A DNA stretch of 64,000 bases from a virus. Under the pieces are notes generated by a model. That model made no database searches. It worked only from the letters and a program-made list of their open reading frames with translations, and had not been told where the DNA came from. Shown piece by piece: positions 1 to 18,788 of the stretch; the stretch's first letter is position 1, and the number at the start of each line of letters is the position of its first letter. Both the position numbers and the translations under genes were made by a program. Location: the IMG/VR virus record IMGVR_UViG_3300040959_000809. One strand, given 5' to 3'.

Positions 1-379
1 GTGTTACCGCATCCTCTGCTGTAGACCATGGGAAAGAACCTTGGTTTATTTCAGTGACGACTCCTGATTTATCCTCAATCTGTTTTTGGATCTGTTCGTC
101 AATATGTACTTTATATGTTCTGTCCCCATTTACTCTATTTTGAATCCATGCCAAAACATCAGCTTCAGTCAGATCTGCAAATGCCTTAAATGAACCAGCT
201 GGAACATTCTCAGCAGTAAATGGTGTAGCACCAGAGAAAGTACCATCGACACCATCAGCATTAGCACCAGTACATTCCCAATATGTTTGAACCACAGCAC
301 TAGGTAATGTCTCACCATCTGCGTTCACTTGATCACGAACTTTAAGTCCACGAACCTTCCAAGTATATGTAAAATCCAT
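1..379 (-). CDS. Small tail-fibre-associated protein, 3' end truncated by the window edge (not in the supplied ORF track)
   Basis: Hand translation from ATG at 379: MDFTYTWKVRGLKVRDQVNADGETLPSAVVQTYWECTG...FSGATPF...FKAFADLTEADVLAWIQ..., open to position 1. GGAG lies at 387-390 and AATAAATA at 411-418. Resembles small proteins often encoded next to S74-bearing fibres. Confidence 0.8.
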   Translation of the reverse strand, partial: MDFTYTWKVRGLKVRDQVNADGETLPSAVVQTYWECTGANADGVDGTFSGATPFTAENVPAGSFKAFADLTEADVLAWIQNRVNGDRTYKVHIDEQIQKQIEDKSGVVTEINQGSFPWSTAEDAVT

Positions 380-410
380 TATTATTCTCCGATTTTAGTT
401 TAATATAAGT

Positions 411-418
411 TATTTATT
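411..418 (-). promoter_or_regulatory. T4-type late promoter, near consensus (AATAAATA)
   Basis: Plus strand tatttatt at 411-418, in the gap upstream of the 1-379 gene. Confidence 0.55.
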
Positions 419-854
419 AATCTTCCACTGCGTCTGCAAAGTACGTTGTGGTCTTTAAGAAATTGTATGCCTGGGTAAGTTCACTCGGTGCGCCTTCTGA
501 TGTATCTAACATAAAGCATGGCTCATACCCTTTCCACATTTGCCCGAAATCTGAATCCATAGGAGCATCTGTAGGTGCAGAACCAATCATCCCAAGCGGC
601 TCAGATCCATTTTCTCTTGCATCTTTTGAAACATAAACAGTTATGGTTACCTTGGCAAGATATCCCGCCTTCCATTCACGTTCATTATCTGGTCTCTGCT
701 CGCCACCATTTGTCAAGCCATCTTGTCTTCCGGCATCACGTGGATCTTTAATATCAGCAACCCTTTTTTCCACATCAACTTTGGTTATAATGTGATATGC
801 ATTAGGTACCGTAAGTCCGGTATTTTTTATTACGAAATCTTGAATTAAAGCCAT
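417..854 (-). CDS. Hypothetical 145-aa protein, probably tail-fibre assembly/accessory
   Basis: ATG overlaps the fibre stop (TAATG) and has an upstream GGAG. Lies directly downstream of the S74-containing fibre. Confidence 0.8.
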   Translation of the reverse strand: MALIQDFVIKNTGLTVPNAYHIITKVDVEKRVADIKDPRDAGRQDGLTNGGEQRPDNEREWKAGYLAKVTITVYVSKDARENGSEPLGMIGSAPTDAPMDSDFGQMWKGYEPCFMLDTSEGAPSELTQAYNFLKTTTYFADAVED

Positions 855-3800
855 TATTTACTCTCCATTAATTTATATACCATTTCTTTCAATTTGTCAA
901 TCTCTTTTTGTTGATTATCAAGTTTTTGTTCCTGTTTATTTATCAAATCTTGTTGGTCTTTTGTAGCTTCAATAAGCACACCGACAAGTTTATCATAAGC
1001 TACACCGTAACGATCATTTTCATCATCATAGGTAATAACCTCTGGAACGACCTTTGCTGTTTCCTGAGCAATGACACCCATATGGCGTCTATGCTCTTTA
1101 TCTTCAGGCTGCCATTTCCAATTATAATAAACACCACGCAAATTCAATACCTTGTCTAAGGCATTATCAATTGTTACAATATTTTCTTTGTGTCTTTCAT
1201 CTGAGAAAGCAACAATATCACCCGTTGCATAAATGTCACCAGAAACATAAAGTTCATATGTGGACGATGTAGTAGAAGAACCGATACCCAAACAGGTATT
1301 ATTTGGATTATAGAACCAAGCCCAACGACCCAAGCCTTGATAATAAAGACCGCCATAACCACCGTCTGTACTTCTAAACATCCAGTGAATGTCATTGGAT
1401 ACCTGCGACATTGCAAATCCATAATAGTTATTACGATTTCCAAGTAGGTTCATTGAACCGTATGAGGTAGATGAGTTCGGATAAATGTGCCAGCCATTAG
1501 TACTAGAATAATAGCCAGATGTATTGGTTAACTGCCAAGCAGCTTTATATGTATAACCAGATGTGTTATTATTGAACGTCCAATTTAATGTATTGTTATT
1601 ATAATCTCTTTCAATACGGATACCACCATAACCACCATAGGCCGCCATGGTAATACCAGTATGATATTGAAGTACTAGATCTGGGTACGGGCTAGACCAA
1701 GCTCCATTTTCTTGGAAGCCCCAACCATATGGCCAATCACTACGATCATAACTACCTCCACTGTTAGATCCATTATACGGTGAATCATATACATTAGCCT
1801 CGATGACATTCATCCGTGAGGTTGATGCAAAATTACCGTAGTAGCCATCATTATTATGATCATAAAAGATGGGTGAGCGGAAGCTACCGTCAGCGTAACC
1901 ATTACCTACAACATGAAGATCATATGAAGCAGTACCTGTATCACCTGTGCCACCACCAACTTTAAATGTATCCGCAACAACAAGTCTACCTTGTGTTGTC
2001 AGTGACATAGCACCTTGTGCAGTGTTGTGACCCGTGTCACCCCACCAGAAGCCGCGATCATCCTCATCATTGAATTGGAATGTCATAGCCCAGTCATTCA
2101 GACCACCATATGTAATCCCTGACTGCATACCGATAGCAAAGTCTGAACTATCATATACACGAATCTTATCACGAGTACTGTTTGAAGGACCGTCTAGTCT
2201 GTTGAAATCCATTGTATTAATATTGGAATTTCCAGCCATATTCATGTAATAGGTGTCGTCATCCGTATCATAGAATAGTGGCGCACGGAATGATTGAGAT
2301 GCATAAACATTACCATTTGCTCGAGCCTGGAATCTCCATTGATTGGCAATATCACTAGAACCCGCACCATGTTGTCCTAGATACAGCCCGGAATTTTCAT
2401 CATTATTATTATTTGAATCAATGTTTATGAATACATTATTATATGAGTTAATCCTGATATCATCTGAAGCGTCACCCGCCGCATTTCTTGATGTAATACT
2501 GTGGTTGGTATTGTCATTACCGTAGAATGTAATATAATCACCTTGGTCCTTCATATTAAACCGATCAGCTGTAATCGTATTCATAATTGATGTAGAAGCT
2601 GGATCTGCATAGAAAGCAGGATCATTAGTATCATAATAACGGCCAGCATACATCGAGCCGCCGTTTGAACTATTTTCATCAAGAACAGGAATTGTTCTCC
2701 AAGCTCTAAACGTATTACCCCAAGTTGAGCGGAACCGAAGGTTTGTAATTGGTCCACCAACCATTTGCCAACCATAGCGGTTAGTTCCGTTTGAATAGTG
2801 ATATGCCTGAACACCGACCCAGTGTGATGTACCTGAAGGCTGGTTACCCGGGTTAGACCAAGAATCAATAAAGCCAGATCCCCAGTCAGCAACCACCGTT
2901 GTCATATCTTGCTTGCCCCAGCCCATTGCACCTGACCAATAGTTGGTATCAGAGGTAATCCGAGGTCTTGCTCTATAGTACTCACCAGAATCTCTTGTGT
3001 GCCCTGGCAAAGCCATATAAGCCATGGTTACATTATTCACACCTTTAAAACGTGTAGAGTTAATAGATACCGGATTGAAATACCAATTACTATCATCTGT
3101 ATCTCTAAAGATAGGAGCACGCATATCATTATTGGCTTCAAAATAACCATTTTGTGTACGAGCCTGCTGACCACCGTTATAGTAAAGAATGGTACGAGCA
3201 TTTCTTTCTAAGTAAATCTGCCAATCATCGTCAGGTGATTTAAAGCCCCAGTGACTATCTTCATCAAAGTAAATACGACCACAGTTAGTTGAGTTACTAT
3301 CGCGGAAAATAATTTCACCGTGGTCAGAGTCATTTGAACGAATTGACATTGTGTCTGCATCGTCATCGTAAATATCCCAGCCGTTATCCAAGCTGTACAC
3401 ATTAGCAATGATTGTATTCATTCTAGATGTGCTAGCAAAATCACCGTAGTAAGCCGGATTGTTATAATCATAGTAAATGGTAGCATACATTGATGTATTG
3501 TAGTTACTAGCATTATTAGTTGTAAGAGCCATAGACGCTGTGCGAGTCTGTCGAACGGTACCATAATCGCCATTGCCGCGGAACCCTACGGTCCATCCAT
3601 TGCCCCAGTCGGTAGAAAAACTACTATAACCTGTGTGTACATTTGTAACAGAAACCTGTGGATATTGCCAACCTTTATATTCACCGATACAAACAATATG
3701 ACGAGAGCCATCAGTACCAAATCTAAAGTTTACACGGCCATAATCACTGTCTGTAAGTTGAGTAACAGAAACGTTGGTCCACCGGCCACTAGAATATGCA

Positions 3801-6800
3801 TATCCACCAACTCTAAATGTTGACATTCTACCGAAATTATATTCGTAAACATTAACATCAAAGTGAAGCATTGTATTGCCGCTATAACGGCTGGTTGGAA
3901 GATAAATTGTCAAAACACCATTTACTGTAGATGCAGACGTTGTATAAGTACCACCATTAGGCATTGCAAACCGACGAGTTTGGCCATCATATACATTGTT
4001 TATTCTAGCATAATTCATCAACGTTGTCGAAGCAAAATCACCATAGTATGCAGGATTATTGCGGTCATAATATCTATCAGCATATGCATTACCATAGATT
4101 TCAGTAGTACCGCCATTTGTTCTTAGCGCCCATTGGCTATCGGCTGAGTTGCGGAATCCGATATTATTACTGTTATCAGCACGGATATAACCTCGAGCAC
4201 TATTACCTGTAGTAGTAAACAATATCTGTGAGGTTGCCTGAGTAGAATACAATCTAAACCGCTGGTTAGTATCAGAATACCAATGCATTGCTGTTGCTTG
4301 GTTATATAGACCTTCACCACTATTATCATTTCTGAACCAGTTACGAGCATAGAATTCAGTTGCGCGTATACCAGTACCCATATTTGAGAATCCAGCAGGA
4401 TCAGCATAATATGCAGGATCATTGCGGTCATAAAAAATTGGAGAATCAATTCTGTCATTGATTAATGTTTGGCCGTTTCCACGGACAATCATATTCCATT
4501 GGCCACCTACACCGCCATCACGGAATGAGATATCCTCACCACCTGATGTTGCAATAATTAAGTGAGCATCATTAGTTTCTGTTGCTTGGATGTAACCACG
4601 GGTACTTCCAGATGACGTTTGGAAGTTTGCAATTCCACCTGCAACATGAGTGGTAGTATTTACATTAATTGCGTTCATCCGTGAAGTTGATGCAAAATTA
4701 CCGTAGTAGTTAGGATCATTACTGTCGTAGAAAATAGGTGCCCGTACACTATTATGTGCATCGTAACGATTAGCAATATTTGGACTATCATAATCGTGTG
4801 TTATGCTAGCCGCATTATTAAATGTCATACGTTGTGATTTGCCAGGTATGATTAGGCGACTGTTTGCCGGAGCAGAAGTGCTACCTTGATCATTCTGAAT
4901 TGTCTGGCCATTTCTATAAATCCAGCGCCATCTTGCAAATGAGTTCCAGGCAGCACCTGAGAATCTAAGATACACGTTCCGAGCATTATCAATATAAACC
5001 TCTGGGCTAATTTGCCCATTTGAGCTTTCTAGATCATGCTGAATGGACATACCTGAACTTGCGTATGTTGCCATATGCACAGTACCTTTAACGGCACCAG
5101 GGTAATTAGAATCACGTTTACAATAATATTCAATTGCGCCAATTGAGGTAGCGCTAGATAATGTTGCGACACGGATATAATAATATGAAAGGACGGATCC
5201 GTTCCAGTTATATGGCGTTCTTGAATACCACTGACCTTGTTGTGGATTGTTCTGATCAAACCCACCTAATGTCAATGTATTCAGATAGGATCTATCACCT
5301 GGTTCAGTCCAATAAGATGTAGAGGATCTATCTGTAAATCTATTTGCATATATTGTATTTTCTGCATATACGTGTCTGTCGTTTTGCAGCCAGAACATTG
5401 CTTCGTTATTACCAGAGGACCAACCTCGGCCAATCCCATAGTGTGGGTTAGTGTTGTTAGGTGAGTAACCAAAACTTAGTCTTGTTGAATTTGTGCCAGA
5501 GGTGCCAATTACCCAATGCTTAAAGTTACCTGTAGAGGCGTTAGCACTATCATACCCCATAAATCGTAGAGTAGGTCCATGTGTAGAATTATTAATTCGA
5601 GATGATACAAGATTTATTTGAGGATATTGTCCTCTTAATGTAAGGTCTGGTCGTCTACTTTCGGATAATAGACCATTGGTTTTATTTGTTTCATCACCTA
5701 ATTGAATCCGCGCAGGTTGACCACCAGAACTATTATAACCGGCTGTGGGCACCAATTGAATTCTTTGCATACGTGATTCAGAAGCAAAATTACCGTAGTA
5801 GTTAGGATCATCATTATCGTAGAAAATAGGAGAATATATATTCCCTGGTGTCGTTACTCTAGTAGTACTCCAACCAATATTACGACCAATGTAAAGATCA
5901 TCAGTTCCATCGTAGAATAGGAATGATTTAACAGCATCACCAGAATCGTGGCCCACAAATTCCCATGTCTCTGAGAAGTTTGCCATAAGTCCAGCGCGAA
6001 TATCTGATGCCCAAGTGCCAGCACTGAAGTCATAATTGGTATCGGTACGACCAATATTTAATGCACCAGGTTGCATATTTCCAACTGAATAATTGGAGTT
6101 AGCAATTTCACCGTAAACTCTCATAGAGAGATCGGCATTACCATCCCAAATATATGCATTATTATCTCTATCTACAATTTTACTTACGTTGACCTGGTTC
6201 ATTACCGAGGTGCCAGCAAAATCACCATAGAAACCTGTGTTATCTCTATCTCTAAATACAGGTGCGTCTGCATTACCTGATACATCAAGATCACCAGTTA
6301 CAAAAATATCATCCGAGCGAATACGACCTTGTACATTTGATCTTTTTAGAATTGGTGGGCCGAACTCACGAAGAGCACCGGCACTGTTGTAGTTCATTAA
6401 GATACGAATACGTACAAATCTACAGCCACCGCCATCTGAACCATTATAAGGTGTGTGCGTTGTCGGAATTGTTGTAAAGCCACGATATGTATTCCAACCA
6501 GTACTTGTATAGTTTACAGCACTTGCAACAAAGTATGTAGTACCAGTATTACCAGCAATCGGCTTTTTATCTTTATCAAATCGTTCAATACCATAGTAAA
6601 ATAATCCACCAGAACCAGAAACATATCTGATTGCCATTTCACCATAAATTTCTTCACCAGGTTCAACAGCAATATAATCTGAATAGAATTGACGATATGC
6701 AGATGTCCTTACGACATAACTCGATGCAGTTGGTGAATCGCTGCTCTTAGAATAATCACCAGTTTGAATATTATTGGTTTCTGAACCTTGTAGAACATTA

Positions 6801-9800
6801 ACAACACGGCGATCCCAATATTCCGATCCATCAAAGAGTGTATCATCAGCAAGACCTGTTCCGTAGTGCTTAAGTAGACCAAGATCCTCATTGCCACCAT
6901 TGATAGCAAAACTACCAGCGGATAGTGTGCCTTGGAAATATGCATTGCCGTTATCAAGATCAATAGAAGCTCTTAAGTTTCCGCTACCGACAAATACAAG
7001 CTCATTTGGATTACTTGTAGAAAAGTGTGAATATGCAGGATTATCATTACCGGCCCAGAAAATACCCCAGTTAGTAGCAGTTCTCCAAACCCAGTGTGAA
7101 TAATCCTGAGCATCAAGGAAGATATTATTACTTCCGTCACCAGATGTAGCAAAACCAGCGCGTTGGATATAACCAGGAACTCTTAAAGCTCTATCTGCAT
7201 TGGCTACATCAAGATCTAACCAATAGGATGTCGAAGATGGTGCATAATAAATTGGAGCCCGCATTTGGTTAGTGGCAAGGAAATAACCGTTTTCAGTTTC
7301 TGCCTGTTTTGTACCATTAAAATATAAATCGGTTCCGGCATTTCTAGTAAGGTACATCGCCCATTTATTGTCAGTATCATTATAGATACCAGCTTCAGAT
7401 GGACCAGATGACATGAATACCCAGTCATCATTAATTGCGTAACCAGCCCAACTGTTTGTAGTACCGCCAACTCTAATAGAACCATAATCACCAGTAATAC
7501 CATCAATAAAATATGTGGAACTATCTACTTCAAATTTTTGAGCTCTCATAATATTCGTAAGAGAGGTTCCAGCAAAATCACCGTAATAATTTACGTCGTT
7601 GGAATCTACAAATTTTGGTGCTCTAAATTCAGTAGGTGTGTAAACGTGATCAACATAAGCAATTAAATTATCACGGGTATTATAAGGAGATGTGGTCTTT
7701 TTAAACCTCATTCTAATTGATTCATTGCCATCAAAATCATCTTCTGATTGAAGAATCAATGCACCCGTGTCTGTCCCAGATGGGCTTTCACCATAGATTT
7801 TCCAACCGTCATTATCACCGGTCTGTTGGCCGATATAATAAGTTGGCTGAGTAGATGTTGTGGTATATGATGTACCCACTGGGTTCTGAGGCATCGTAAT
7901 CCGAGCCATAACAGATGTGCCAGAGAAATTACCATAGAAATTATTATCATCATAATCGTAATAGATTGGAAAATATGCATAATCATTTGCACTATATGCA
8001 CCAATACCACCACCGTCGAATTCTGTAAATCTATTAAAATAAAACTTAGCTCTATCTGTTTGGAAATGAGAATAATTTGTATTCATCGGGCCAATATCTA
8101 CATAACCCGATGGTGTTGTTAATCTCCATGCATTACTTGTTTCTGGTGTCCAGGAATAATCATTATTACTAATATCAATAAATGAATTACCGTAAATATT
8201 ATTCGCACCAAAATGTTCATATGCATTACCTGGATTGTTTCTTGCAACAATACGGCCTGTGGACTCAATACTGAGCTGAGAAGCAACTACACCACCCCAA
8301 TGAAAGGCTAGATGTGGAGGTGTTGCTGCGGCGGTTCCAGTATAATTGGATTCACGAAGTTCAATAGCAGCAGTTGAATATGACGTACCTGTAGACGTGG
8401 CTGCAACCTCAAAATTACCTTTTAATTTACCACCTGCGGTAAAGTCCATGTAGAAGGTTTGATCATCACTGTCTTTAAATATATCAAAAATCGCATCACC
8501 AGTAGAATAAACATCAACGTTATTCCGTACGCGTAAATAGTTGGCATCTTCCATATACCAACCAGAACCCCAACCAAATGCAAGTTCCTCATCTTTTAAG
8601 AATGATGCAGTTCCACGGCCAAAGATAATACCGTCATCATTACCATTCAGATAAATCGAGCCACTCACATGAAGTTTTGGATTACTTGGAGTAGTCGTTA
8701 GTGCTGTATTGTCACCACCATCTGTATATGTTACAGAGTCACCATTAACAATAACATCGCCACCGTTTAGAATTGCGGCTCTAGCGGATCCACCGCCACT
8801 ATACCAATAAACATCACCGTCTGTATCAGATACATTATATACGTTTCCATTAGCGGCGCCTCTGACGGTGAACGTCTGAGTACCATCAGTATACAACGAT
8901 ATGTATCTGTTACTATCGTTGAAAGGGTTTTGTCCTAGGTCTATGCGGTTTAAATACATCAATGAGTAGCCGCCGTTTGAGCCACTCATAGCGAATGTTG
9001 TGTTCTGTCCTGCGCCAATAGATCCATGAGGAGCAATTGCCAGACCACCATTGCCCGTAGTATCAGCCCATCTTGACGCGTCCGTAATAGTGCCAAATAG
9101 CCCTTTACCTGCGGCCGTCAATGATGTGGTTGTATCTGCCGGATTTAAATAATATGAATTATTATCATAATCTGTAAACTTTGGTGCTCTCAGTTCATTT
9201 GTAAATTCACTGAAGCCGTTTGTGACTCTAAACCGTTTATTGTTATTAGTAAATACCTCAAATTCATCCGTAGCAGGGAAATGAATATATGTGTCAATAT
9301 TACTATCTCGTCTAATTTTATCAACAAGATTAATTCTTCTCATTCTTGAGGACGATGCAAAGTCACCATAGTAGGTAGCATCGTCGTTGTCATAATAGAC
9401 ACCCGCATACATATTTAATGCGCTTACATCGCCACTAAAAGTTCCACCAACGGCTGTGATATCACCAGTGAAGGTTCCATCATCAGCAGAAATATCACCA
9501 TTAAAAATACCATTGTTTGCGGTGATATCATCTGAAAGTGTAATATCAACACCAGTAACAGTGCCGGCAAAATTAGCCGCATTTAATTCGGAGGTCCCAG
9601 CTGGGTCAAGAAAATATGTGTCATCGTCCGAATCATAGAATTTTGGTGCATATACATCTACAGAAAAATCTGCAGAATCAGTATCAATACTTAAGCGTTC
9701 AGTATTATCTGTAAATAACTTATATGTATTATCGGCAGAAAATCCAAAATATGTAGTTTGATTGTTATTGTGTAAAATCCAATCATCAATAACAATACTT

Positions 9801-11692
9801 GACATTACAGATGTACTTGAAAAATCGCCATAATAATTTAAATTATCACTGTCAACAAACGCCGGAGCCCGCATATTTGTTACAGATTCAGAATATGTAT
9901 TTGTTACATTAAATCTATTTGTCCCACCAGTCGTGATGGTAAATGTATCCGCTGCACTGAATCCAATATATGTATCTGTATCACCGTCATGAAAGATTTC
10001 ACCGACCAATGAAATATCATTTATTCTAGAAGTTGTTGCAAAATCACCATAGAAGTTTAAATTGTCACTGTCATAATAGACAGGAGACCGCATTTCAGTA
10101 TTAGCGGTTACAATATTTCCAGTTGCAGTTCCTGTTACATCAAGATTACCAAAGACATCAACTCCAGTATTGTTGACTGTCATTCTTGTTGAGCCGCCGG
10201 TATCAATATTAACTATATTACCCGCAGCATCAAATGTAATTTTTGTATCAACATCGCCGTTATGAATTATTGAATCATCAACATAAAGATTTGGTGCGTA
10301 TACGTCTACAGTAAAGTCTGCAGAATTATTGTCTATGCCAAAACGCTCGACGCTGTTTGTTTGAAAACTAATGTCATCATTTGTAAATGATATCTTTGTA
10401 CCTTCATCACCATTGTGTGATAAATCAGCATCAATTCCTATGTTATTAAACACAGAACTGCTAGCAGGGTCTACGATATATGTATTATCGTCAAAGTCAA
10501 TAAATCTCTTACCAATTACATCAGCTTGGGATGAAATATTTCCTACTGCACCTATCTCACCACCGGCAGAAATATCATCTCCCGCAATAACATCATCACC
10601 TGCAATTACATCAGAAGTAGCATTTACATTTCTCCCGGCAATTACATCCTGGCCTGCTTCTACGTCTGTACCAGCAATAACTTTATTTGTAGCATTTACA
10701 CCATCGGTATTTGTATTTGCACCTACGATCCAGTTATCATACTGATCCGAATAAGCAGCATAATTAAGACCCGAATTGAGGAAACCAACATCTCCATTAT
10801 TGGAGTAAATAATTCTATTTGAACCAGCACCGTCTAAATAAATTTGAGCAGGACCACCATTATCACCTATGGTCAGATCCCCCAGGATGGTAATGTTACC
10901 ATTTGCAGTATCGTCTACATCTGAACGTAAGAATTGTGCCGCTTCTAAGCCATCAACACTATCTGCATCAAAACCATTACCGGAACCTTCGTCTGCAGTT
11001 GTAATGATACGACCAAGATCTGTTTCTGTGCCACTGATTAGTTTCCAATAATCACTACCCTCGTCCCATAAAATTTGTGGAGTTCCAAGGGTACCGCGCT
11101 CGATTTCAATACCAGCATTTTCTGTTGGTGAACTGCCTGTATAATCTGCATTAAGAGTGATAATATTATCTGAAAGGAGAATAGTTTCTGTATCGACATA
11201 TGTGGTAGTACCTGATACAGTCAGGTTACCAGTAATGATAAGGTTACCGTCGAATGTGTCATCTTCATCACTGCGAAGGAATTGGAGTGAATCAATCCCA
11301 TCGAGTAAATCCGCATCAAGACCAGAACCGGTCCCATCATTATCTGCGTACCAAATTACGCTTCCGTTGACTGTGGGTCCTATTTTAAAATCGGGACCGG
11401 TGGACGTAATTTCAAATTGTGTGGCATTATTATATTGGAATTCTAACCCATCTGAACTAGGGTGAAAAATAATTCCATTATTCTGTTGTGAATTGTAGAC
11501 ACTAAAAATATCAGCACTTAAATTTTGAATATTTAATGTTGTGGCTGAACCTTCAATGGAAAGAGTTCCATCAATATTTGTATTTCCAGTTACTTGAAGT
11601 ATATCTGATGTGTTGTATGTGGTCGAGCCAATAACAACACTTTCTTGCGTCAGAAGACCATTTTTTACTATGAATTTCTTATCATTAGCCAT
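854..11692 (-). CDS. Giant modular tail fibre (3612 aa) with C-terminal peptidase S74 intramolecular chaperone
   Basis: Start is probably ATG 11692 (MANDKKF; GGAGAG 8 nt upstream), not the GTG at 11701. Fibre motifs GSGLDADLLDG..FLRSD; about 23 copies of APxFYDxxxxxYYG[DN]FASTSRMN; C-terminal AFSDERHKENI...GVIAQE...VAYDKLVGVLIEA plus a coiled coil. Confidence 0.92.
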   Translation of the reverse strand: MANDKKFIVKNGLLTQESVVIGSTTYNTSDILQVTGNTNIDGTLSIEGSATTLNIQNLSADIFSVYNSQQNNGIIFHPSSDGLEFQYNNATQFEITSTGPDFKIGPTVNGSVIWYADNDGTGSGLDADLLDGIDSLQFLRSDEDDTFDGNLIITGNLTVSGTTTYVDTETILLSDNIITLNADYTGSSPTENAGIEIERGTLGTPQILWDEGSDYWKLISGTETDLGRIITTADEGSGNGFDADSVDGLEAAQFLRSDVDDTANGNITILGDLTIGDNGGPAQIYLDGAGSNRIIYSNNGDVGFLNSGLNYAAYSDQYDNWIVGANTNTDGVNATNKVIAGTDVEAGQDVIAGRNVNATSDVIAGDDVIAGDDISAGGEIGAVGNISSQADVIGKRFIDFDDNTYIVDPASSSVFNNIGIDADLSHNGDEGTKISFTNDDISFQTNSVERFGIDNNSADFTVDVYAPNLYVDDSIIHNGDVDTKITFDAAGNIVNIDTGGSTRMTVNNTGVDVFGNLDVTGTATGNIVTANTEMRSPVYYDSDNLNFYGDFATTSRINDISLVGEIFHDGDTDTYIGFSAADTFTITTGGTNRFNVTNTYSESVTNMRAPAFVDSDNLNYYGDFSSTSVMSSIVIDDWILHNNNQTTYFGFSADNTYKLFTDNTERLSIDTDSADFSVDVYAPKFYDSDDDTYFLDPAGTSELNAANFAGTVTGVDITLSDDITANNGIFNGDISADDGTFTGDITAVGGTFSGDVSALNMYAGVYYDNDDATYYGDFASSSRMRRINLVDKIRRDSNIDTYIHFPATDEFEVFTNNNKRFRVTNGFSEFTNELRAPKFTDYDNNSYYLNPADTTTSLTAAGKGLFGTITDASRWADTTGNGGLAIAPHGSIGAGQNTTFAMSGSNGGYSLMYLNRIDLGQNPFNDSNRYISLYTDGTQTFTVRGAANGNVYNVSDTDGDVYWYSGGGSARAAILNGGDVIVNGDSVTYTDGGDNTALTTTPSNPKLHVSGSIYLNGNDDGIIFGRGTASFLKDEELAFGWGSGWYMEDANYLRVRNNVDVYSTGDAIFDIFKDSDDQTFYMDFTAGGKLKGNFEVAATSTGTSYSTAAIELRESNYTGTAAATPPHLAFHWGGVVASQLSIESTGRIVARNNPGNAYEHFGANNIYGNSFIDISNNDYSWTPETSNAWRLTTPSGYVDIGPMNTNYSHFQTDRAKFYFNRFTEFDGGGIGAYSANDYAYFPIYYDYDDNNFYGNFSGTSVMARITMPQNPVGTSYTTTSTQPTYYIGQQTGDNDGWKIYGESPSGTDTGALILQSEDDFDGNESIRMRFKKTTSPYNTRDNLIAYVDHVYTPTEFRAPKFVDSNDVNYYGDFAGTSLTNIMRAQKFEVDSSTYFIDGITGDYGSIRVGGTTNSWAGYAINDDWVFMSSGPSEAGIYNDTDNKWAMYLTRNAGTDLYFNGTKQAETENGYFLATNQMRAPIYYAPSSTSYWLDLDVANADRALRVPGYIQRAGFATSGDGSNNIFLDAQDYSHWVWRTATNWGIFWAGNDNPAYSHFSTSNPNELVFVGSGNLRASIDLDNGNAYFQGTLSAGSFAINGGNEDLGLLKHYGTGLADDTLFDGSEYWDRRVVNVLQGSETNNIQTGDYSKSSDSPTASSYVVRTSAYRQFYSDYIAVEPGEEIYGEMAIRYVSGSGGLFYYGIERFDKDKKPIAGNTGTTYFVASAVNYTSTGWNTYRGFTTIPTTHTPYNGSDGGGCRFVRIRILMNYNSAGALREFGPPILKRSNVQGRIRSDDIFVTGDLDVSGNADAPVFRDRDNTGFYGDFAGTSVMNQVNVSKIVDRDNNAYIWDGNADLSMRVYGEIANSNYSVGNMQPGALNIGRTDTNYDFSAGTWASDIRAGLMANFSETWEFVGHDSGDAVKSFLFYDGTDDLYIGRNIGWSTTRVTTPGNIYSPIFYDNDDPNYYGNFASESRMQRIQLVPTAGYNSSGGQPARIQLGDETNKTNGLLSESRRPDLTLRGQYPQINLVSSRINNSTHGPTLRFMGYDSANASTGNFKHWVIGTSGTNSTRLSFGYSPNNTNPHYGIGRGWSSGNNEAMFWLQNDRHVYAENTIYANRFTDRSSTSYWTEPGDRSYLNTLTLGGFDQNNPQQGQWYSRTPYNWNGSVLSYYYIRVATLSSATSIGAIEYYCKRDSNYPGAVKGTVHMATYASSGMSIQHDLESSNGQISPEVYIDNARNVYLRFSGAAWNSFARWRWIYRNGQTIQNDQGSTSAPANSRLIIPGKSQRMTFNNAASITHDYDSPNIANRYDAHNSVRAPIFYDSNDPNYYGNFASTSRMNAINVNTTTHVAGGIANFQTSSGSTRGYIQATETNDAHLIIATSGGEDISFRDGGVGGQWNMIVRGNGQTLINDRIDSPIFYDRNDPAYYADPAGFSNMGTGIRATEFYARNWFRNDNSGEGLYNQATAMHWYSDTNQRFRLYSTQATSQILFTTTGNSARGYIRADNSNNIGFRNSADSQWALRTNGGTTEIYGNAYADRYYDRNNPAYYGDFASTTLMNYARINNVYDGQTRRFAMPNGGTYTTSASTVNGVLTIYLPTSRYSGNTMLHFDVNVYEYNFGRMSTFRVGGYAYSSGRWTNVSVTQLTDSDYGRVNFRFGTDGSRHIVCIGEYKGWQYPQVSVTNVHTGYSSFSTDWGNGWTVGFRGNGDYGTVRQTRTASMALTTNNASNYNTSMYATIYYDYNNPAYYGDFASTSRMNTIIANVYSLDNGWDIYDDDADTMSIRSNDSDHGEIIFRDSNSTNCGRIYFDEDSHWGFKSPDDDWQIYLERNARTILYYNGGQQARTQNGYFEANNDMRAPIFRDTDDSNWYFNPVSINSTRFKGVNNVTMAYMALPGHTRDSGEYYRARPRITSDTNYWSGAMGWGKQDMTTVVADWGSGFIDSWSNPGNQPSGTSHWVGVQAYHYSNGTNRYGWQMVGGPITNLRFRSTWGNTFRAWRTIPVLDENSSNGGSMYAGRYYDTNDPAFYADPASTSIMNTITADRFNMKDQGDYITFYGNDNTNHSITSRNAAGDASDDIRINSYNNVFINIDSNNNNDENSGLYLGQHGAGSSDIANQWRFQARANGNVYASQSFRAPLFYDTDDDTYYMNMAGNSNINTMDFNRLDGPSNSTRDKIRVYDSSDFAIGMQSGITYGGLNDWAMTFQFNDEDDRGFWWGDTGHNTAQGAMSLTTQGRLVVADTFKVGGGTGDTGTASYDLHVVGNGYADGSFRSPIFYDHNNDGYYGNFASTSRMNVIEANVYDSPYNGSNSGGSYDRSDWPYGWGFQENGAWSSPYPDLVLQYHTGITMAAYGGYGGIRIERDYNNNTLNWTFNNNTSGYTYKAAWQLTNTSGYYSSTNGWHIYPNSSTSYGSMNLLGNRNNYYGFAMSQVSNDIHWMFRSTDGGYGGLYYQGLGRWAWFYNPNNTCLGIGSSTTSSTYELYVSGDIYATGDIVAFSDERHKENIVTIDNALDKVLNLRGVYYNWKWQPEDKEHRRHMGVIAQETAKVVPEVITYDDENDRYGVAYDKLVGVLIEATKDQQDLINKQEQKLDNQQKEIDKLKEMVYKLMESK
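1809..1844. repeat. Direct repeat copy (35/36 identical to 4674-4709) encoding the fibre junction motif
   Basis: ttcatccgtga[g/a]gttgatgcaaaattaccgtagtag at 1809-1844 and 4674-4709. Confidence 0.9.
4047..4433. repeat. 24-bp direct repeat pair with 1 mismatch (4047-4070 and 4410-4433)
   Basis: tatgcaggat[t/c]attgcggtcataa, encoding YDRN[N/D]PAY. Confidence 0.85.
4692..5811. repeat. 28-bp exact direct repeat pair (4692-4719 and 5784-5811)
   Basis: gcaaaattaccgtagtagttaggatcat at both sites, each followed shortly by tcgtagaaaatagg. Confidence 0.9.
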
Positions 11693-11740
11693 TCGGTTCA
11701 CTCTCCCCAGTTAGGCTTTAATTAACCAATTATTTTAGTT

Positions 11741-11748
11741 TATTTATT
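11741..11748 (-). promoter_or_regulatory. T4-type late promoter, near consensus (AATAAATA), upstream of the giant fibre
   Basis: Plus strand tatttatt in the intergenic gap. Confidence 0.6.
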
Positions 11749-11749
11749 A

Positions 11750-14332
11750 TTATTCAACAAGGCGAGCAAAAATCTTATATGTCGTGGGCGTTGCAGATGC
11801 ATTTACTGCTACTACATTTACATTGCCAGAACCCAATCCAACATCGAACGACGCCAGATCATTTGCGGTGGTTGAAATATTACCAAATTCCGTTGCGTAT
11901 GCTGTAGTCCCATCATGAACTATAAGCATTTTAGATATCTGAGTACCTAAACTTGTTGTGGCGGTGATGGTCAATTCTCCGGATGAATAATCCGAGCCGG
12001 TCCATTGTAAAATTAGAGCAGGAAAGACGGATGATGAACTTGCAGTTAATGTAATAAGTCTTGCATAGTCCTGAATAATATCTGCCTGGACTTCAAGATC
12101 ACCAGTCATTGTATCGCCGGTTACATTTACATATCTGGCATCTGCGGTTGCTTGATCTAAATAATTTCTAATACCTTTGGTGACAGAAACGACATGCCCG
12201 AAGTCATCAAAGGATACTGATTCAATAAATTCTGGTGCCAAGGAAGTATTTGCAAACACAACATTTGCTTGTGATGAAGTATCAGCATGACTTATGGTTC
12301 TGCTTGCACTTAAATCACCACCACCAGTGAGACCATTTGCCCCAGTAATGGTAATTGTTTGGAAGGCAAACCGACCATCACTTTCCGTTTCTGTATAATA
12401 CCTATTGTCTAATTGACCATTGTCAAGTTCTGTTTCCGTGTAATAACGAGTATCAAGATCAATAGACGACACACCGACAACGTGGCCAAATGTATCAAAA
12501 TTAATATCCTGTAAAACACTACCATCTGCATTATCAACATTTGCTTGAGCAGAAACATCTTCATGGTTAATGGTAATTACTTGATTTGTAAACTGGTTGG
12601 TAGTAAATGTGCCGCCACCAATGAGTGCGTCACCTGCGACAATTTGAATGCTGCCGTCACCAATTTGAGATGCAGCGCTATTTGCTGCCTGTGATAAAAT
12701 TTCTGATGCATGTAGGCCATCCAACAAATCAGCATCAAGTCCTGACCCAGTACCGTCTACAGTTTTAATTTGATTTAAAACAAAAGTAGCATCTGGAACA
12801 TTCGTGAAATTTGAATATTCAAGATAATAGTCACCGTTGGCACCATCCAACAAATCAGCATTCAATCCAGAACCTGGACCATCTACCGTTTTAAGTGCAT
12901 TTAAAATTTCAGTAGCAGTTTGATCCGCAGTTGCGCCATCTTCAATTAAATCAAGTTTGGCACCATCAACCGAAATGTCTCTACCGTCTACATCGCCGGT
13001 GACTATAATATCACCATTAACTGTTAGGTTTGTAAAATTATCTACATTTACAAATCGTACTGTTCCATCACCAGTTTCAAGTCGTAATGTATTATTTGCA
13101 GTTTCCCATGTAAAACTTTCCACACCGGCAACAGCAGTATTTGATAATAGCGTTACACGACCATCTTCATCAACTGTTATAATAGGAATCTGTGATGCAG
13201 AACCATATGTCCCGGCGATTACACCAGTATTTGCAAGCTCAGTGGTGATATCAATAACACCATTATTTGAAACCGCAGATCCTGTAACTTTACCAGAAAG
13301 ATTAACAGTGGTTGTTGCCGATGCAAGCCCATCAAGTATAATACCGTCAGCAGCAATATCTCTACCATCAACTGTTCCAGTGACTGTAATATCACCATTT
13401 ACAGTGAGGTTTGTGAACTCATCTATTGGTGTTTTAAATACACCACCATCTGCTGTCTGAATTACAAAAGTATTATTAGCGACATACCAATTTGTAGCTG
13501 ATACCCCAGCAACCGATGTAGTATTTGCAACTGTAATTCTACCATCTTCATCAATCGTAAGAATAGGAACAAGAGATGCAGATCCATAGGTCCCAGCAGT
13601 CACGCCAGTATTTGCAAGCTCAGTGGTTAATGTCATTACGCCTGTATTAGAGAATGCATTACCAGTGACCTTACCATTAAGTGTAAGATCTAAAGTGGCC
13701 GGTGGTACGTTTGTAAAATTATTATAATCTAAATAATATTCACCAGATTGACCGTCTAAAAGATCTGAATCCAATCCTGAATTAGCACCATCAACAGTCT
13801 TAATTAAATTTAAAATGTCTTGTGGGTCAGCAGAAAATTCTACGATTGATTCTGTTACAGTCCCTGATGAAACAGTAATAGTTCCAACCATACCAGAATG
13901 AACGGAACATTGATAATAATAGGTCCCTACCTGATCTGGATTTGGAATCCATACAACATCTGATCCACCTTGAGCACCCTGTCCAATGGCATTAAAAATC
14001 TGATCATCAGTTCCTGTGCCAGCGACAGTTTTTAAATATAAAGGATGGCCAGATGCGTTATTAGTAATAGTGAGAGTATCACCAGCCTGAATGGAAATAT
14101 TCCCATCAAGGCTTACAATAGGGCCTGTTCTATCAGTACCCTGTACGATCCAATCTGAACCACCTGAATTTAAAAATGAAACCGCAAAACTAGATGTGTT
14201 TGCAAATTCTGCTTTTTTAATGAAAAGTTTGCCGTCAGCAGTATTAAGAGCGGCTTCACCAAACTCTAATTGCCCAGTCGTGGGGACACGGCCGGGTGTA
14301 TTAGTCTGTCTGAGTTTGATAAGCGTTGTCAT
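11750..14332 (-). CDS. Fibre-like virion protein (860 aa) with a cupredoxin-like domain and a 127-aa internal duplication
   Basis: N-terminal IKLRQT...PTTGQLEFGEAALNTADGKLFIK (fibre N-terminal motif); HPLYL...YYYQCSVHSGMVGTITV; three GxGLDADLLDG-type motifs; duplicated TELANTGVxAGTYGSA. Confidence 0.85.
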   Translation of the reverse strand: MTTLIKLRQTNTPGRVPTTGQLEFGEAALNTADGKLFIKKAEFANTSSFAVSFLNSGGSDWIVQGTDRTGPIVSLDGNISIQAGDTLTITNNASGHPLYLKTVAGTGTDDQIFNAIGQGAQGGSDVVWIPNPDQVGTYYYQCSVHSGMVGTITVSSGTVTESIVEFSADPQDILNLIKTVDGANSGLDSDLLDGQSGEYYLDYNNFTNVPPATLDLTLNGKVTGNAFSNTGVMTLTTELANTGVTAGTYGSASLVPILTIDEDGRITVANTTSVAGVSATNWYVANNTFVIQTADGGVFKTPIDEFTNLTVNGDITVTGTVDGRDIAADGIILDGLASATTTVNLSGKVTGSAVSNNGVIDITTELANTGVIAGTYGSASQIPIITVDEDGRVTLLSNTAVAGVESFTWETANNTLRLETGDGTVRFVNVDNFTNLTVNGDIIVTGDVDGRDISVDGAKLDLIEDGATADQTATEILNALKTVDGPGSGLNADLLDGANGDYYLEYSNFTNVPDATFVLNQIKTVDGTGSGLDADLLDGLHASEILSQAANSAASQIGDGSIQIVAGDALIGGGTFTTNQFTNQVITINHEDVSAQANVDNADGSVLQDINFDTFGHVVGVSSIDLDTRYYTETELDNGQLDNRYYTETESDGRFAFQTITITGANGLTGGGDLSASRTISHADTSSQANVVFANTSLAPEFIESVSFDDFGHVVSVTKGIRNYLDQATADARYVNVTGDTMTGDLEVQADIIQDYARLITLTASSSSVFPALILQWTGSDYSSGELTITATTSLGTQISKMLIVHDGTTAYATEFGNISTTANDLASFDVGLGSGNVNVVAVNASATPTTYKIFARLVE
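13224..13627. repeat. 23-bp exact repeat (13224-13246 and 13605-13627) marking a 381-bp tandem duplication
   Basis: ccagtatttgcaagctcagtggt at both sites; offset 381 bp = 127 codons. Confidence 0.85.
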
Positions 14333-14372: not shown

Positions 14373-17300
14373 TTAAAAAGCACCACCGTTAATTTGAGAA
14401 ACTGTCACCACACCTGCGCTCACATTAAAGTTAGCGGCAGAAAATGCGGCGGCACCAATATTTGTTGTACTTGCTAATTCTGCAGAAATTGTTATTTCAT
14501 TATTAGCATGACTTGTGTCAATCCCTTCACCACCAACGAGTGTTAGAGTTTCACCTAATCTAACTTCATCAGCAACTCCAGCATCAGATCCAAAGTTAAT
14601 AAAAGGATTTGTTACTCTAAATTCGGTTCCGGTAATGCTTAAACCATAACCTGCAGTATATGTTCCGGCACCTGAGAACTGATACCAATTAATATCATCA
14701 CTATTAAGTGTAAAGAGTTCAGCATCGTCTACCTGTGCTACCCAACCTGTTCCATTATTAACCGTGCCGTCAGTTACAAATACAAACGATCCAGGAATTT
14801 CATCACTCTCGTTGAAGTACTCACCTCTGGTTAATATCCAAGGCCTTGCAGGATCTACTGCATTACCGTCCTGAGTAAGAACATATGCACCATTTTGAAT
14901 CGGATCTGTTTGATCCTTTACAAGTACCCGGTCACCAATTTCCCAATTAGTTACACCGTCCAATGCAAAAGGTGTATTGGTTGGGCCAGTTATTGTTCTT
15001 AAATCACCATCAAAAGTACCACCTAAATCAGTAGTCGTTGCCGCCAGAGCAGATGGTATTACGCGTAAACCTTGAGCAGTAGCATCAACATAGGCCTTGT
15101 TTGCAGCATCAGTACCTGCTACAGGTGATAAAAGATTTGAAATAAGACTTGAATTAACATCCACTACATTGGAAGCTGGATTTAAACTTAAATCGCTTTC
15201 ACCAACCGTGGCAATTTCATTAGTCGTAAGTGTTAAATTACTATTAACTTGCACACTAGTGCCAGCATCAATAGTTGTTCCTACAGTTAAACTATTATCT
15301 ATTTCTAGTTCATTTAGAAGTGAATCAGTTCCAGCAGGGTGTAGGAAATATGAAATATTATCAATGTCAACAAAACGTTTTGCTTCCACATCACCATCCG
15401 GAACAACCCAATTACTGGTTGCACGTTCTGCATATGCTGTGTAGTTAAACGAGTTATTAAGGAACCCAACCCTACCGCCGGCAGCATACATTGTTGATAC
15501 AGTACCTGAGCCATCTGTAAACGATAGCTGAGTGGTTGACCCACCGTAACCGAAATGCATTCTATTAACTCTGGATTCACTATGCGGATCCATGTAATAG
15601 TTTGGATTATTTGAATCAATGAATCTAGGTGCTGAAATATTACCTGTTAAAACACCACCAGCTAATGAAAGATATCTTGCATCTAGGTTTATTGCTGCTG
15701 CGGTCTGAACATGGCCGTAATCATCAAATGTTAAATTTTGGATCACGGTCCCATTTACAAAACCCGTATCACCCATTACAGATGTATCACCGTGCATAAT
15801 CGTGGCGGTAGAGCCTACACCTTGACTATGAAATACCACAATTGAACCGTTAGCTTCACCCTGTACATCATTTACAAAGTTAAAATTAGCGGTTAATGGA
15901 ATTGTTACGTCGGAAACACTGAGTACGGTATTTGATCCTACCATATCTCCAGTTACATTAATTACAAAATCATCAATAGTTGAATTGATAACACCGTTGG
16001 CGGATGCATCTTCATATGTATATGAAATACCCTGATGAGTACCAAATCTGAACTGAGAGGCTGTAATATCTTGTGAAGCTTCTTCAAATTCCACAATCGC
16101 ATTTGATTGTAATACAAATGGGACCTCAGTAGCATCAATGATTCTACCAAAACCATCTACTGTAAATCTAGGTGTATAGCCATCATTACCATATCTACCG
16201 GAGGAAACACCAGACGGTGCCAGTTGGATTAGGAGTGCGTTATTTACAAATTCTGCATTAAGCCCAAGACCAATCTGAAATGTTGGATCATTTTCCAATA
16301 GGGTCATATTATAAGTATTGGATCCTTCCAGAATATCTAATGTTCTGGTAAAGTCACCATTTTCCAAATAGTCAAATGTTACAACATCGGTATTAGATGT
16401 AGGATTAGCAACATTGGTGATCTTTGTTCCTGATGCATTAACCGCACCATTTGCTTCCAAAAATAAATCTGCATTAGACGTTATTTTTGTGTTGACATTT
16501 AGCTCACCGGTGTTATAATTAATTATGACCTTATTTAAACCATTACCAAATCGTACATCACCTGATGAATCAATCCGTGCTCTTTGTACACCAGCGGTAA
16601 AGAAATCCAATTGATCGTTGTCGGCATTGGGACTTGATTCTGCAACAATCTTTGTATCTTGATCTACATCAATGACGGACCCTGCAAGGCCGGCCCAAAT
16701 ATTTCCATCATACCCTTCAAATCTACTGTCAGTAGTATTATATCGGATCATGCCTGTTTCGGCTGAAGGTCTATCACCAACTGCACCAACAGGAAGTTTT
16801 AATGCACCAATAGTACCAATGGAAACAACTTCGGAATCACTCTTAATCTCAGGTGTAAAGATTCTATTCCATTGTTTACCGATTGCACCAAGATTATAAG
16901 TTAAATCAGCATTAGGAACTAGATTACTTGTAAAGTCGGCAACGACTTCGATTGTATCAACATTGGCATCACCAATTGTAATATTTCCACCGAGGGTAAG
17001 ATTACCAGTAATGTCGGTGTCGCCGTCAACTGTAAGTGTAGATCCATCAAACCGCAATGTGTTGCTATCTATAAGTGATCCACCAGAACCAACAAAGATA
17101 ACTCTATTTTCTGTTAGGTTTCCAGCTGAAAGTCCTGAGCCTCCAATGCCTCCACCGATTGAAAGAGTACCACCAATATTTGTATCACCGGTAGCCCAAT
17201 CAATTGTAAACTTATTTAAGCCATCACCAAATTTAAAATCACCGTCTGCATCTAATCTTAATGTTTGATTTCCAGAGTTGAAAAAATCTAATTGGTCGTT

Positions 17301-18788
17301 ATCAGTACCAGCACCACTTTCAGCAATAATTTTTGTATCTTGGTCAACATCAATAACACCACCAAGACCTGCCCATGCAGTACCTTTATAACCTTCAAAT
17401 TGATTATCAGTGGTATTATATCGGATCATACCTTGTTCAGCAGTTGGCCTATCATTAGTAGTACCAACAGGCAAAATTAATCCACCTGCACTGTTGACAT
17501 CAACGACATTTGATGTTATAATAAGACTATCGTCTTTACCAATAATATTATCAAATGTTTGAGTGTAGTCTACCTCAAATTCGGTTCCTAATGAACCAGT
17601 TAAGGTAAGACCTCTACCGGCCGTAAATGTACCGGTACCTTGGAATTGTGAGTAAATAATACCATCAGAATCTAATTCAAATGTCTCTGCATCTGCAACG
17701 GTGGCAACCCAACCGGTTTGTCCATATGTACTACCATCAGTTACGAATACAGGGAATCCAGCAATTTCTTTTGTTTCATCTGTATAAATTGGTCTTTGGA
17801 AAATCCAATCAGAAATACCATCACCAACCTGAATTAATTCATAACGGCCGTTTTCTATTGGATTGGTTTGATTTTTTACAAGAAGACCATCACCAAGACT
17901 CCAATTAGTTACCCCATCGATATCTAAAATAAGAGATCTTGGAATTGTAAGAGTTGATGAAACATTTGTATTTGCTACCGCATCAAATGGATTTTCAGCA
18001 TATGTTGCGCCCAGATCACCAGTCGTGGCAGCTATAACAACAATTTTTTCAAATATATCTTCTTGAACTAAGTCTACATATCTTTTGTTAGCTGGATCTG
18101 TTGGATCGACCGGATCATCTAGTACTCTGAAACTGATTGTTAGATCATCAATCGTATTATCTAAATACCGTCTATTTACTGCATCCTGTGCATTTTCCGG
18201 ATCATAGATATTGGATATTCTGTGGTTGTTTACATCTACCACACCACCAATTCTTGGGCTTAATGAGATATCTTGTGAACTTGTAATACGATTTTGAGTA
18301 AATGTAAGTTTGCCAACTTCAAAAGTATCTAGTCCTAAAAGAACATTTGATGATTCACCTGCGGCAATGGATGTATTACCAATAGTAAAATCTTTTGATC
18401 TGATTATGTTGCCGTTGGGTCCTGACTGGACCTCGAAGTGATATGACCAAAAGGTGCTATTATCAAATTGAGTAATATGACCAAATTGATCTATATCAAT
18501 ATTTGTAATAAAATCAAGTGGGTCATTAACTGTGCTAACGGCTGTAGTAGTATTGGCGTGGTGGATTACTACGTTTGCAGACTCAATACCGGTATTACCA
18601 GATACTGTGATACCTCGACCAGCTTCGAGATCTCTAATATAGCTTCCTACAGTATCGACACCAAGGGTAACTGAATCAGGTGTGATTACAGGTTTTGATT
18701 GACCCTGTGCAACAATAGATCTTGTAGTATCCTGTTTTGGTGTAGCCCGTATAGATCTCGAGCCGCCAACTTTAACCTTAATACTCAT
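14373..18788 (-). CDS. Fibre-like virion structural protein (1471 aa) with two pairs of duplicated domains
   Basis: DA(V/A)NxxY(V/L)D stalk motifs; two copies of LPVG...RP...GMIRYNTTD..FEGY...VIDVDQDTKI.AES..DNDQLDFF; two copies of AATT.DLG...DGVTNW..GD..LVK.QT.PI.NG.Y...VFVTDG...TGWVA.V.DAE.F.L.SD. Confidence 0.85.
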   Translation of the reverse strand: MSIKVKVGGSRSIRATPKQDTTRSIVAQGQSKPVITPDSVTLGVDTVGSYIRDLEAGRGITVSGNTGIESANVVIHHANTTTAVSTVNDPLDFITNIDIDQFGHITQFDNSTFWSYHFEVQSGPNGNIIRSKDFTIGNTSIAAGESSNVLLGLDTFEVGKLTFTQNRITSSQDISLSPRIGGVVDVNNHRISNIYDPENAQDAVNRRYLDNTIDDLTISFRVLDDPVDPTDPANKRYVDLVQEDIFEKIVVIAATTGDLGATYAENPFDAVANTNVSSTLTIPRSLILDIDGVTNWSLGDGLLVKNQTNPIENGRYELIQVGDGISDWIFQRPIYTDETKEIAGFPVFVTDGSTYGQTGWVATVADAETFELDSDGIIYSQFQGTGTFTAGRGLTLTGSLGTEFEVDYTQTFDNIIGKDDSLIITSNVVDVNSAGGLILPVGTTNDRPTAEQGMIRYNTTDNQFEGYKGTAWAGLGGVIDVDQDTKIIAESGAGTDNDQLDFFNSGNQTLRLDADGDFKFGDGLNKFTIDWATGDTNIGGTLSIGGGIGGSGLSAGNLTENRVIFVGSGGSLIDSNTLRFDGSTLTVDGDTDITGNLTLGGNITIGDANVDTIEVVADFTSNLVPNADLTYNLGAIGKQWNRIFTPEIKSDSEVVSIGTIGALKLPVGAVGDRPSAETGMIRYNTTDSRFEGYDGNIWAGLAGSVIDVDQDTKIVAESSPNADNDQLDFFTAGVQRARIDSSGDVRFGNGLNKVIINYNTGELNVNTKITSNADLFLEANGAVNASGTKITNVANPTSNTDVVTFDYLENGDFTRTLDILEGSNTYNMTLLENDPTFQIGLGLNAEFVNNALLIQLAPSGVSSGRYGNDGYTPRFTVDGFGRIIDATEVPFVLQSNAIVEFEEASQDITASQFRFGTHQGISYTYEDASANGVINSTIDDFVINVTGDMVGSNTVLSVSDVTIPLTANFNFVNDVQGEANGSIVVFHSQGVGSTATIMHGDTSVMGDTGFVNGTVIQNLTFDDYGHVQTAAAINLDARYLSLAGGVLTGNISAPRFIDSNNPNYYMDPHSESRVNRMHFGYGGSTTQLSFTDGSGTVSTMYAAGGRVGFLNNSFNYTAYAERATSNWVVPDGDVEAKRFVDIDNISYFLHPAGTDSLLNELEIDNSLTVGTTIDAGTSVQVNSNLTLTTNEIATVGESDLSLNPASNVVDVNSSLISNLLSPVAGTDAANKAYVDATAQGLRVIPSALAATTTDLGGTFDGDLRTITGPTNTPFALDGVTNWEIGDRVLVKDQTDPIQNGAYVLTQDGNAVDPARPWILTRGEYFNESDEIPGSFVFVTDGTVNNGTGWVAQVDDAELFTLNSDDINWYQFSGAGTYTAGYGLSITGTEFRVTNPFINFGSDAGVADEVRLGETLTLVGGEGIDTSHANNEITISAELASTTNIGAAAFSAANFNVSAGVVTVSQINGGAF

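Follow-up and report, generated by a model that had tools for sequence, protein, structure and literature searches.

In T-even phages, the shuffling of host-recognition segments through short motifs is an established principle, the motifs being the His boxes of gp37 and the glycine-rich motifs of gp38 (Tetart et al. 1996, 1998; Trojet et al. 2011, PMC3157838). Here, we analysed a giant tail-fibre gene (P0001) in the 64,000-nucleotide (nt) virus record IMGVR_UViG_3300040959_000809, hereafter the window, whose predicted product of 3,615 amino acids (aa) is organized in a related manner. Like the T-even locus, it appears to encode a receptor-recognition fibre of the T4 superfamily, has short conserved motifs between variable segments, and has its junctions in the motif. 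However, the motif is unrelated in sequence and no His box was seen; there are about 20 joints instead of the few in T-even fibres; and the exchanged units are whole beta-rich domains of 73–450 aa rather than short hypervariable loops. T-even recombinants were recovered in crosses, whereas exchange in this fibre is known from comparative evidence alone. The novelty lies in the motif and in the scale, with regard to how many joints a gene has and how large the exchanged units and the family are; the principle is already known from the T-even phages. The gp37 of KVP40-type phages (Schizotequatrovirus) aligns with only the last ~430 aa of the fibre, including a C-terminal chaperone domain, at ~37% identity; the gp37 proteins of KVP40 and D479 are ~1,100 aa long and contained zero copies of the joint motif when scanned.

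The original prediction, made from the window alone, had read the gene as a cassette-like fibre in which near-identical DNA repeats serve as crossover points for swapping, deleting or duplicating receptor-binding modules. The cassette idea is strongly supported. Protein, DNA and profile comparisons agree that modules are swapped as cassettes and that the breakpoints of relatives lie in the motif, and together they show modules re-assorted across the family, with junctions in the core of the joint. The other parts of that interpretation fared differently: the idea that DNA identity marks crossover sites is not supported, and deletion or duplication of modules was unobserved.

The recurring motif is real. 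A pattern search returned 18 clear copies, and a profile built from them added one moderate copy and 2–3 degenerate ones (at about aa 1477 and 2114), giving a total of ~21–22, slightly below the ~23 first counted. Exactly 11 copies carry YG[DN]F, the number given at the outset. All motif copies are in-frame direct repeats. The joint comprises 34 residues with the consensus xxxxxAPxFYDxDDxxYYGDFASTSxMN and opens each module; the 18 strong copies align gap-free over the 34 columns, with D11 invariant and Y18 nearly invariant. Two flavours follow the YY, namely G[DN]FA(S/G)TS and x[DN]P(A/V)xxS, the latter in the copies at aa 680, 834, 2415, 2857 and 3014. As each downstream body carries the second half of the joint along with it, the two flavours may correspond to different classes of module. 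The motif also occurs twice in a neighbouring 1,471-aa structural protein (14373–18788, minus strand; Table 1) and thus is not confined to the giant fibre.

Between the joints, the fibre is a chain of ~20 beta-rich modules of 73–452 aa each. The segments had been described as unrelated to one another; cutting the protein into modules and comparing them by blastp corrected this view, as many bodies are paralogous. The bodies at aa 534–606, 607–679 and 761–833 are 73-aa repeats with 37–49% identity, and aa 400–516 continues this repeat. The bodies of m1356 and m2735 (modules are named by their first residue) share 36% identity over 122 aa, and relatives contain dozens of other units that match the two-module unit at aa 2316–2570 along its whole length.

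The fibre belongs to a large and wholly uncultured family. In IMG/VR and protein collections, 157 proteins (~2,000–6,300 aa) matched it at E ≤ 1e-10; 120 of these matches (2,792–5,069 aa) were listed, and ~90 viral loci with DNA were used. The 34-residue profile recovered 3,597 cluster representatives at E ≤ 1e-3 among 1.84 billion, 876 of them at E ≤ 1e-30, with up to 25 motif stretches per representative. Family members hold 4–29 motif copies (median 18), a number that rises with protein length (r = 0.71). The motif-bearing part was found in no cultured phage. At least nine estuary metagenome runs from 2020–2025 contained 97–99% of the 31-mers of the gene, and marine runs contained part of them.

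Evidence for exchange came first from close protein pairs, found by 6-mer screening and blastp-fast. Among them, 11 block replacements lie between flanks of at least 75% identity; these come from about three clades and amount to roughly seven independent breakpoints per side. The left breakpoints fall 16–54 aa past a motif anchor, and on the right side 7 of 11 lie between −4 and +9 aa from such an anchor; in the alignments, identity halts in mid-motif and restarts at the start of a motif. The ends of protein high-scoring segment pairs were also tried as breakpoints and set aside: they spread 10–120 aa past the motif, and gapped pairs overrun diverged bodies. The starts of these pairs are sharp at the motif, and the DNA-level and both-flank analyses are cleaner than their ends for locating breakpoints.

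At the DNA level, 43% of homology-block starts and 47% of block ends among 45 non-redundant genes fall inside the 102-nt motif, compared with 24% of random positions, and the ends cluster at +24 to +77 nt of the motif (42% versus 13%). Six DNA-level replacements have non-homologous bodies, only 23–33% identical in aa, between flanks that are 83–93% identical in nt. Identity resumes at +10 to +36 nt of the motif in all six and stops at +48 to +65 nt in four, or in five when the offset in the partner gene is counted. Single module bodies, m2316 and m2857, are common to the window gene and the relative L001 (Table 1), each running from the middle of one motif to the middle of the next, while the rest of the two genes is 35–45% identical in protein. 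The best relative of each P0001 module body is a different family member, often at another position; for instance, the closest match of m2735 is P0082 at position 2150 (90% identity), and that of m3135 is L004 at position 913 (77%).

A per-position profile of the motif from 138 non-redundant fibres (2,557 instances) locates the junctions more finely. Motif pairs were sorted by whether the linked body is related downstream only (2,711 pairs), upstream only (2,729) or on both sides (1,700). Upstream linkage raises motif identity at positions 1–13 and downstream linkage at positions ~14–34, and the two curves cross at positions 8–16, which is the FYDxxDxxYY core. As the pairs are not independent, this profile is treated as a map rather than a test.

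The base counts that had first suggested special DNA identity are exact (35/36 for 1809 versus 4674, 28/28 for 4692 versus 5784, and 23/24 for 4047 versus 4410), and the 14-nt core is present at all eight sites originally listed. As a general property, however, near-identity in DNA did not hold, since synonymous identity equals the codon-usage null in the very comparison that the prediction had proposed. Across 153 copy pairs, 1,747 sites have the same residue (M and W excluded); codons agree at 873 of them, where codon usage in the remainder of the gene predicts 884.1. The corresponding counts in orthologues are 424 versus 430, 572 versus 540, and 549 versus 513. Only the tail exceeds the null, with a longest exact run of 28 nt (P = 0.0075), a longest one-mismatch stretch of 36 nt (P = 0.0025) and two copy pairs with exact runs of ≥20 nt (P = 0.017). 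These P values, from 2,000 re-drawings of synonymous codons, are generous, because the tail statistics were picked after the pairs had been flagged. The signal stems from the copies at aa 1960, 2324 and 3279; apart from these, the one DNA self-match seen is 2423/2544. Three to five copies show exact runs longer than the null, and DNA similarity between copies ends within about 65 nt. A local excess is also found in L001 (longest run 34 nt, seven pairs of ≥20 nt, P ≤ 0.002), and no excess of long identical runs was found in L003 and L006.

The same picture emerges between genes. When copies flanked by unrelated bodies are paired (281,046 pairs), mean identity is 46.6% versus a null of 45.8%, and at none of the 34 motif positions does third-position identity depart from the null. 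Exact runs of ≥20 nt are 2–3 times enriched (0.21% of pairs versus 0.09%). Identical stretches of 20–38 nt occur in a few copy pairs but are lacking in 99.8% of the inter-gene pairs from unrelated contexts. The motif is therefore conserved as protein only, not as DNA, and codon bias accounts for almost all DNA identity among the copies. The slight surplus of long identical tracts suggests that exchange or conversion has taken place now and then in the recent past. A strain in run X14 that matches the window at 97–99% identity diverges from it in a 76-nt patch at 3380–3455; the patch starts ~44 nt into the motif at 3398–3499, in the motif core, and ~42 nt of it are nearer to the window copy at 1803–1844 than to the local copy. 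Seen in one contig, this patch resembles a short conversion tract.

Predicted structures give some indication of what the joint and the modules are. In an AlphaFold2 monomer model of aa 2316–2570, built with 35 homologous segments (predicted local distance difference test (pLDDT) 77.8), residues 9–11 and 14–19 of the motif form a beta-hairpin, after which comes an extended stretch of lower confidence, and the module bodies are all-beta. This two-module model had no significant match in the PDB (best Foldseek E 8e-3, VIA Z ≤ 5.7), which does not show a new fold. A model of aa 1356–1850 contains a jelly-roll beta-sandwich within the largest module, resembling the carbohydrate-binding modules (CBMs) CBM16, CBM22 and CBM4 (target template-modelling (TM) score 0.55–0.63, E ~3e-5) and also matching chains of phage tailspike, fibre and baseplate proteins (K2-2 TSP, CBA120 TSP4, Kp7 gp52); no Pfam family matches this domain. 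By this modelled resemblance, at least one module could bind a glycan, and because of the CBM-like jelly roll, module shuffling probably alters what the fibre binds.

On balance, we lean, with modest confidence, towards a structural joint at which, through infrequent short-homology recombination and selection, new module junctions also form. The joint would be kept because the protein needs it, not because its DNA is selected. The new junctions lie in the ~10-residue core FYDxxDxxYY: the part of the joint that precedes the core stays linked to the upstream module, and the part that follows it to the downstream one. In a first step, new junctions would form rarely, in mixed infection, through general UvsX-type or short-homology recombination at the core, presumably the only stretch common to unrelated modules, and selection would retain only in-register products that can still fold. 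In a second step, the new module alleles would spread by ordinary homologous recombination through flanking modules with 80–95% identity. T4 recombination reportedly drops off below ~50 bp of homology, and most copy pairs would therefore be very poor substrates. The idea of a recombinase-free mechanism holds in so far as no site-specific enzyme is needed, but not in the wider sense, as a RecA/UvsX-like protein (~360 aa) is encoded in both relative genomes, of 221 kb and 170 kb (at G001 C1:148960–149586, in the genome with L063, and at G002 C1:33675–34310, in the genome with L018).

Several points weigh against this mechanism. All the evidence is comparative, and no recombination event was observed directly. 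Neither the pair counts of the profile nor the listed replacement events are phylogenetically independent, 91% of inter-gene copy pairs lack an exact run of ≥11 nt, and the structure is a monomer model of a probable trimer without a significant PDB match. Moreover, selection alone would also leave the junctions at domain borders.

This last point is the substance of the strongest alternative, in which the motif is purely a structural joint, an element for folding or trimer register; illegitimate recombination would occur anywhere, only junctions at borders would survive, and DNA similarity would be irrelevant. Synonymous conservation is found nowhere in the motif, exact identity between unrelated copies is typically <11 nt, the motif also occurs in the different structural protein next door, and the model places a hairpin at each module start, all of which would be expected of such a joint. 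However, the junctions map to the most conserved 10-residue core and not to the variable edges of the joint; all 34 columns are gap-free in the 18 strong copies; long exact runs are 2–3 times the codon null and significant within two of the four genes tested; and the conversion-like patch of the X14 strain begins at the core. We regard a purely structural joint as unlikely, albeit a serious contender. Some role for homology in the crossover is favoured because of the core-located junctions, the absence of indels among the copies of this gene and the enriched identical tracts; in these data, guidance of crossover by homology is not separable from selection that keeps only border junctions.

Frequent recombination between direct repeats within one genome, which would delete, duplicate and swap modules and allow a fast host-range switch, would need near-identical DNA. 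Such stretches of 28–36 nt do link the copies at aa 1960, 2324 and 3279, seven L001 pairs have runs of ≥20 nt, the family varies from 4 to 29 copies, and the tandem 73-aa repeats reflect past duplication. Nevertheless, the predicted deletion or duplication of modules was seen neither among close relatives, nor in near-identical strains, nor in the contigs of four runs. The 24 listed replacement events (11 at the protein level and 13 at the DNA level, some sharing a breakpoint) are all replacements of unequal length, with zero precise motif-to-motif deletions or duplications, and any two fibres that share 99% of their 6-mers are of the same length. P0086 and P0088 differ in length by 73 aa; a repeat gain was considered and rejected, the difference being a body replacement after a common motif. 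The Logan contigs of the four runs, searched at 85% likeness, contained no clean motif-to-motif deletion of the window genotype, and most of their apparent joints are 22–42-nt split matches to the motif cores of other fibres. Two candidate joints in run X16 are in register (4693 to 2634 and 4693 to 2268). Uneven depth across bins is not interpretable for contigs. With 97–99% of the words of the gene present in at least nine estuary runs over 2020–2025 and overall synonymous identity at the null, a fast switch of this kind is improbable. That no exchange takes place, the bodies simply diverging fast under diversifying selection around a fixed motif, agrees with bodies far more variable than the motif but is very hard to reconcile with replaced bodies that differ in length and are only 23–33% identical between flanks 83–93% identical in DNA, or with the same body families at other positions beside other neighbours.

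In the contigs of these four runs, the gene (500–12000) is split into pieces of 0.4–1.5 kb, while the neighbouring DNA lies in contigs of 16–157 kb; this fragmentation fits strain-level variation or shared words. Contig ends near 4304–4310 recur in three runs.

The setting of the gene is that of a T4-like virion cluster. It is a tail-fibre gene by sequence match, carrying a predicted C-terminal Peptidase_S74 chaperone domain (63.6 bits against a curated cut-off of 22) in a T4-like baseplate/fibre cluster, and both tail-fibre PHROGs and Peptidase_S74 match its final 120 residues. Homologues of the fibre likewise open with MNRMANDKKF. Upstream genes match T4-type baseplate proteins, namely a gp6-type wedge (phrog_219, E 5e-143) and a gp5-type hub lysozyme, and further wedge and fibre families were matched among the neighbouring genes. 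The gp6 homologue has 41% identity to that of Sinorhizobium phage phiM12/phiN3 and ~33% to those of Methylophilales phage Melnitz and Caulobacter phage Cr30. From these wedge and hub neighbours and the gp6 homology, the window is the late structural region of an uncultured, estuarine T4-like myovirus, and the product is best explained as a very long distal tail fibre. Among 50,697 phage records, no homologue was found for the ~3,100 aa of the fibre beyond the KVP40-like end; a megablast search of these records with the gene and a phmmer search of PDB sequences with the protein each gave zero matches. Three more very large open reading frames (ORFs) lie on the minus strand of the late cluster at 27502–37650, 21009–27080 and 39278–44647 (3,382, 2,023 and 1,789 aa), and the joint motif is absent from all three. 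The GC content climbs to 0.46 near 22000–24000.

Table 1. Positions in the window of the fibre gene, its domains and the joint motif copies
Feature	Residues (aa)	Position (nt)	Strand	Remarks
Giant tail-fibre gene (P0001)	1-3615	854-11701	minus	3,615 aa; one ORF, GTG start at 11701
N-terminal attachment region	1-391	10529-11701	minus	49-61% identical across family, zero motif copies
Moderate motif copy	392-425	10427-10528	minus	E 2e-4; opens run of 73-aa repeats
Joint motif copy	534-567	10001-10102	minus	
Joint motif copy	607-640	9782-9883	minus	
Joint motif copy	680-713	9563-9664	minus	DP variant
Joint motif copy	761-794	9320-9421	minus	
Joint motif copy	834-867	9101-9202	minus	NP variant
Joint motif copy	1067-1100	8402-8503	minus	Most diverged among strong copies
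Joint motif copy	1239-1272	7886-7987	minus	
Joint motif copy	1356-1389	7535-7636	minus	
Jelly-roll beta-sandwich (model)	~1625-1787	6341-6829	minus	pLDDT ~90; in largest module, aa 1356-1807
Joint motif copy	1808-1841	6179-6280	minus	
Joint motif copy	1952-1985	5747-5848	minus	28-nt exact run common with copy 4655-4756
Joint motif copy	2316-2349	4655-4756	minus	35/36 nt match to copy 1790-1891
Module body m2316, common with L001		4421-4708	minus	81% nt; +48 nt of one motif to +38 nt of next
Joint motif copy	2415-2448	4358-4459	minus	DP variant
Joint motif copy	2536-2569	3995-4096	minus	
Joint motif copy	2735-2768	3398-3499	minus	
Joint motif copy	2857-2890	3032-3133	minus	NP variant
Module body m2857, common with L001 and L063		2582-3061	minus	81-82% nt; +72 nt to +80 nt of next motif
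Joint motif copy	3014-3047	2561-2662	minus	DP variant
Joint motif copy	3135-3168	2198-2299	minus	
Last joint motif copy	3271-3304	1790-1891	minus	
Peptidase_S74 intramolecular chaperone domain (PF13884)	3500-3555	1037-1204	minus	E 2e-17
Motif copy in 1,471-aa structural protein		15549-15647	minus	E 1e-11
Second, weaker motif copy, same protein		15297-15398	minus	E 4e-3

More distant systems share only parts of this organization. Fibres and tailspikes bearing an S74 domain (K1F endosialidase, T5 pb1) have only the last ~120 aa in common with the fibre. Rhs/YD-repeat proteins show a likeness in the YD dipeptide of a beta-hairpin repeat, and the weakest Foldseek hits are Rhs shells; however, this match is not significant (E 8e-3, TM 0.12), there is no Pfam RHS match, and the Rhs period is ~20 residues, compared with 73–450 aa and a different consensus here. 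Diversity-generating retroelements, shufflons and invertible cassettes differ in turn, as the fibre has direct repeats only and no recombinase or reverse transcriptase family matched among the ten larger neighbouring ORFs scanned. T4-type genomes are also said to carry mobile promoter-stem-loop cassettes, short repeats that mediate modular shuffling; these are reportedly intergenic and conserved as nucleotides, whereas the repeat in this fibre is coding and conserved only as protein.

The repeat motif is new: it lacks a model in Pfam, a relative in the PDB and a counterpart among cultured phages, and it marks module borders in >3,500 protein clusters. Mapping the sites where modules are re-joined to the residue offers a way to parse giant fibres into exchangeable units and gives a nature-derived rule for where such fibre domains can be joined. 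The impression of special DNA identity is corrected as well. The family is also a natural setting in which to ask whether conserved joints in a protein steer recombination or are simply what selection leaves behind. A bolder and still tentative possibility is that the joint is a universal connector, by which thousands of marine and estuarine phage lineages share a common pool of binding domains, with every module open to splicing onto every other at FYDxxDxxYY. If so, one fibre would display ~20 different ligand-binding units, the short conserved core would itself raise the rate of productive recombination, and the family would represent a natural combinatorial assembly of host recognition on a far larger scale than the His boxes and glycine-rich motifs of T-even phages. 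Proteins of this type, most of them unannotated, determine which hosts uncultured marine and estuarine phages can infect.

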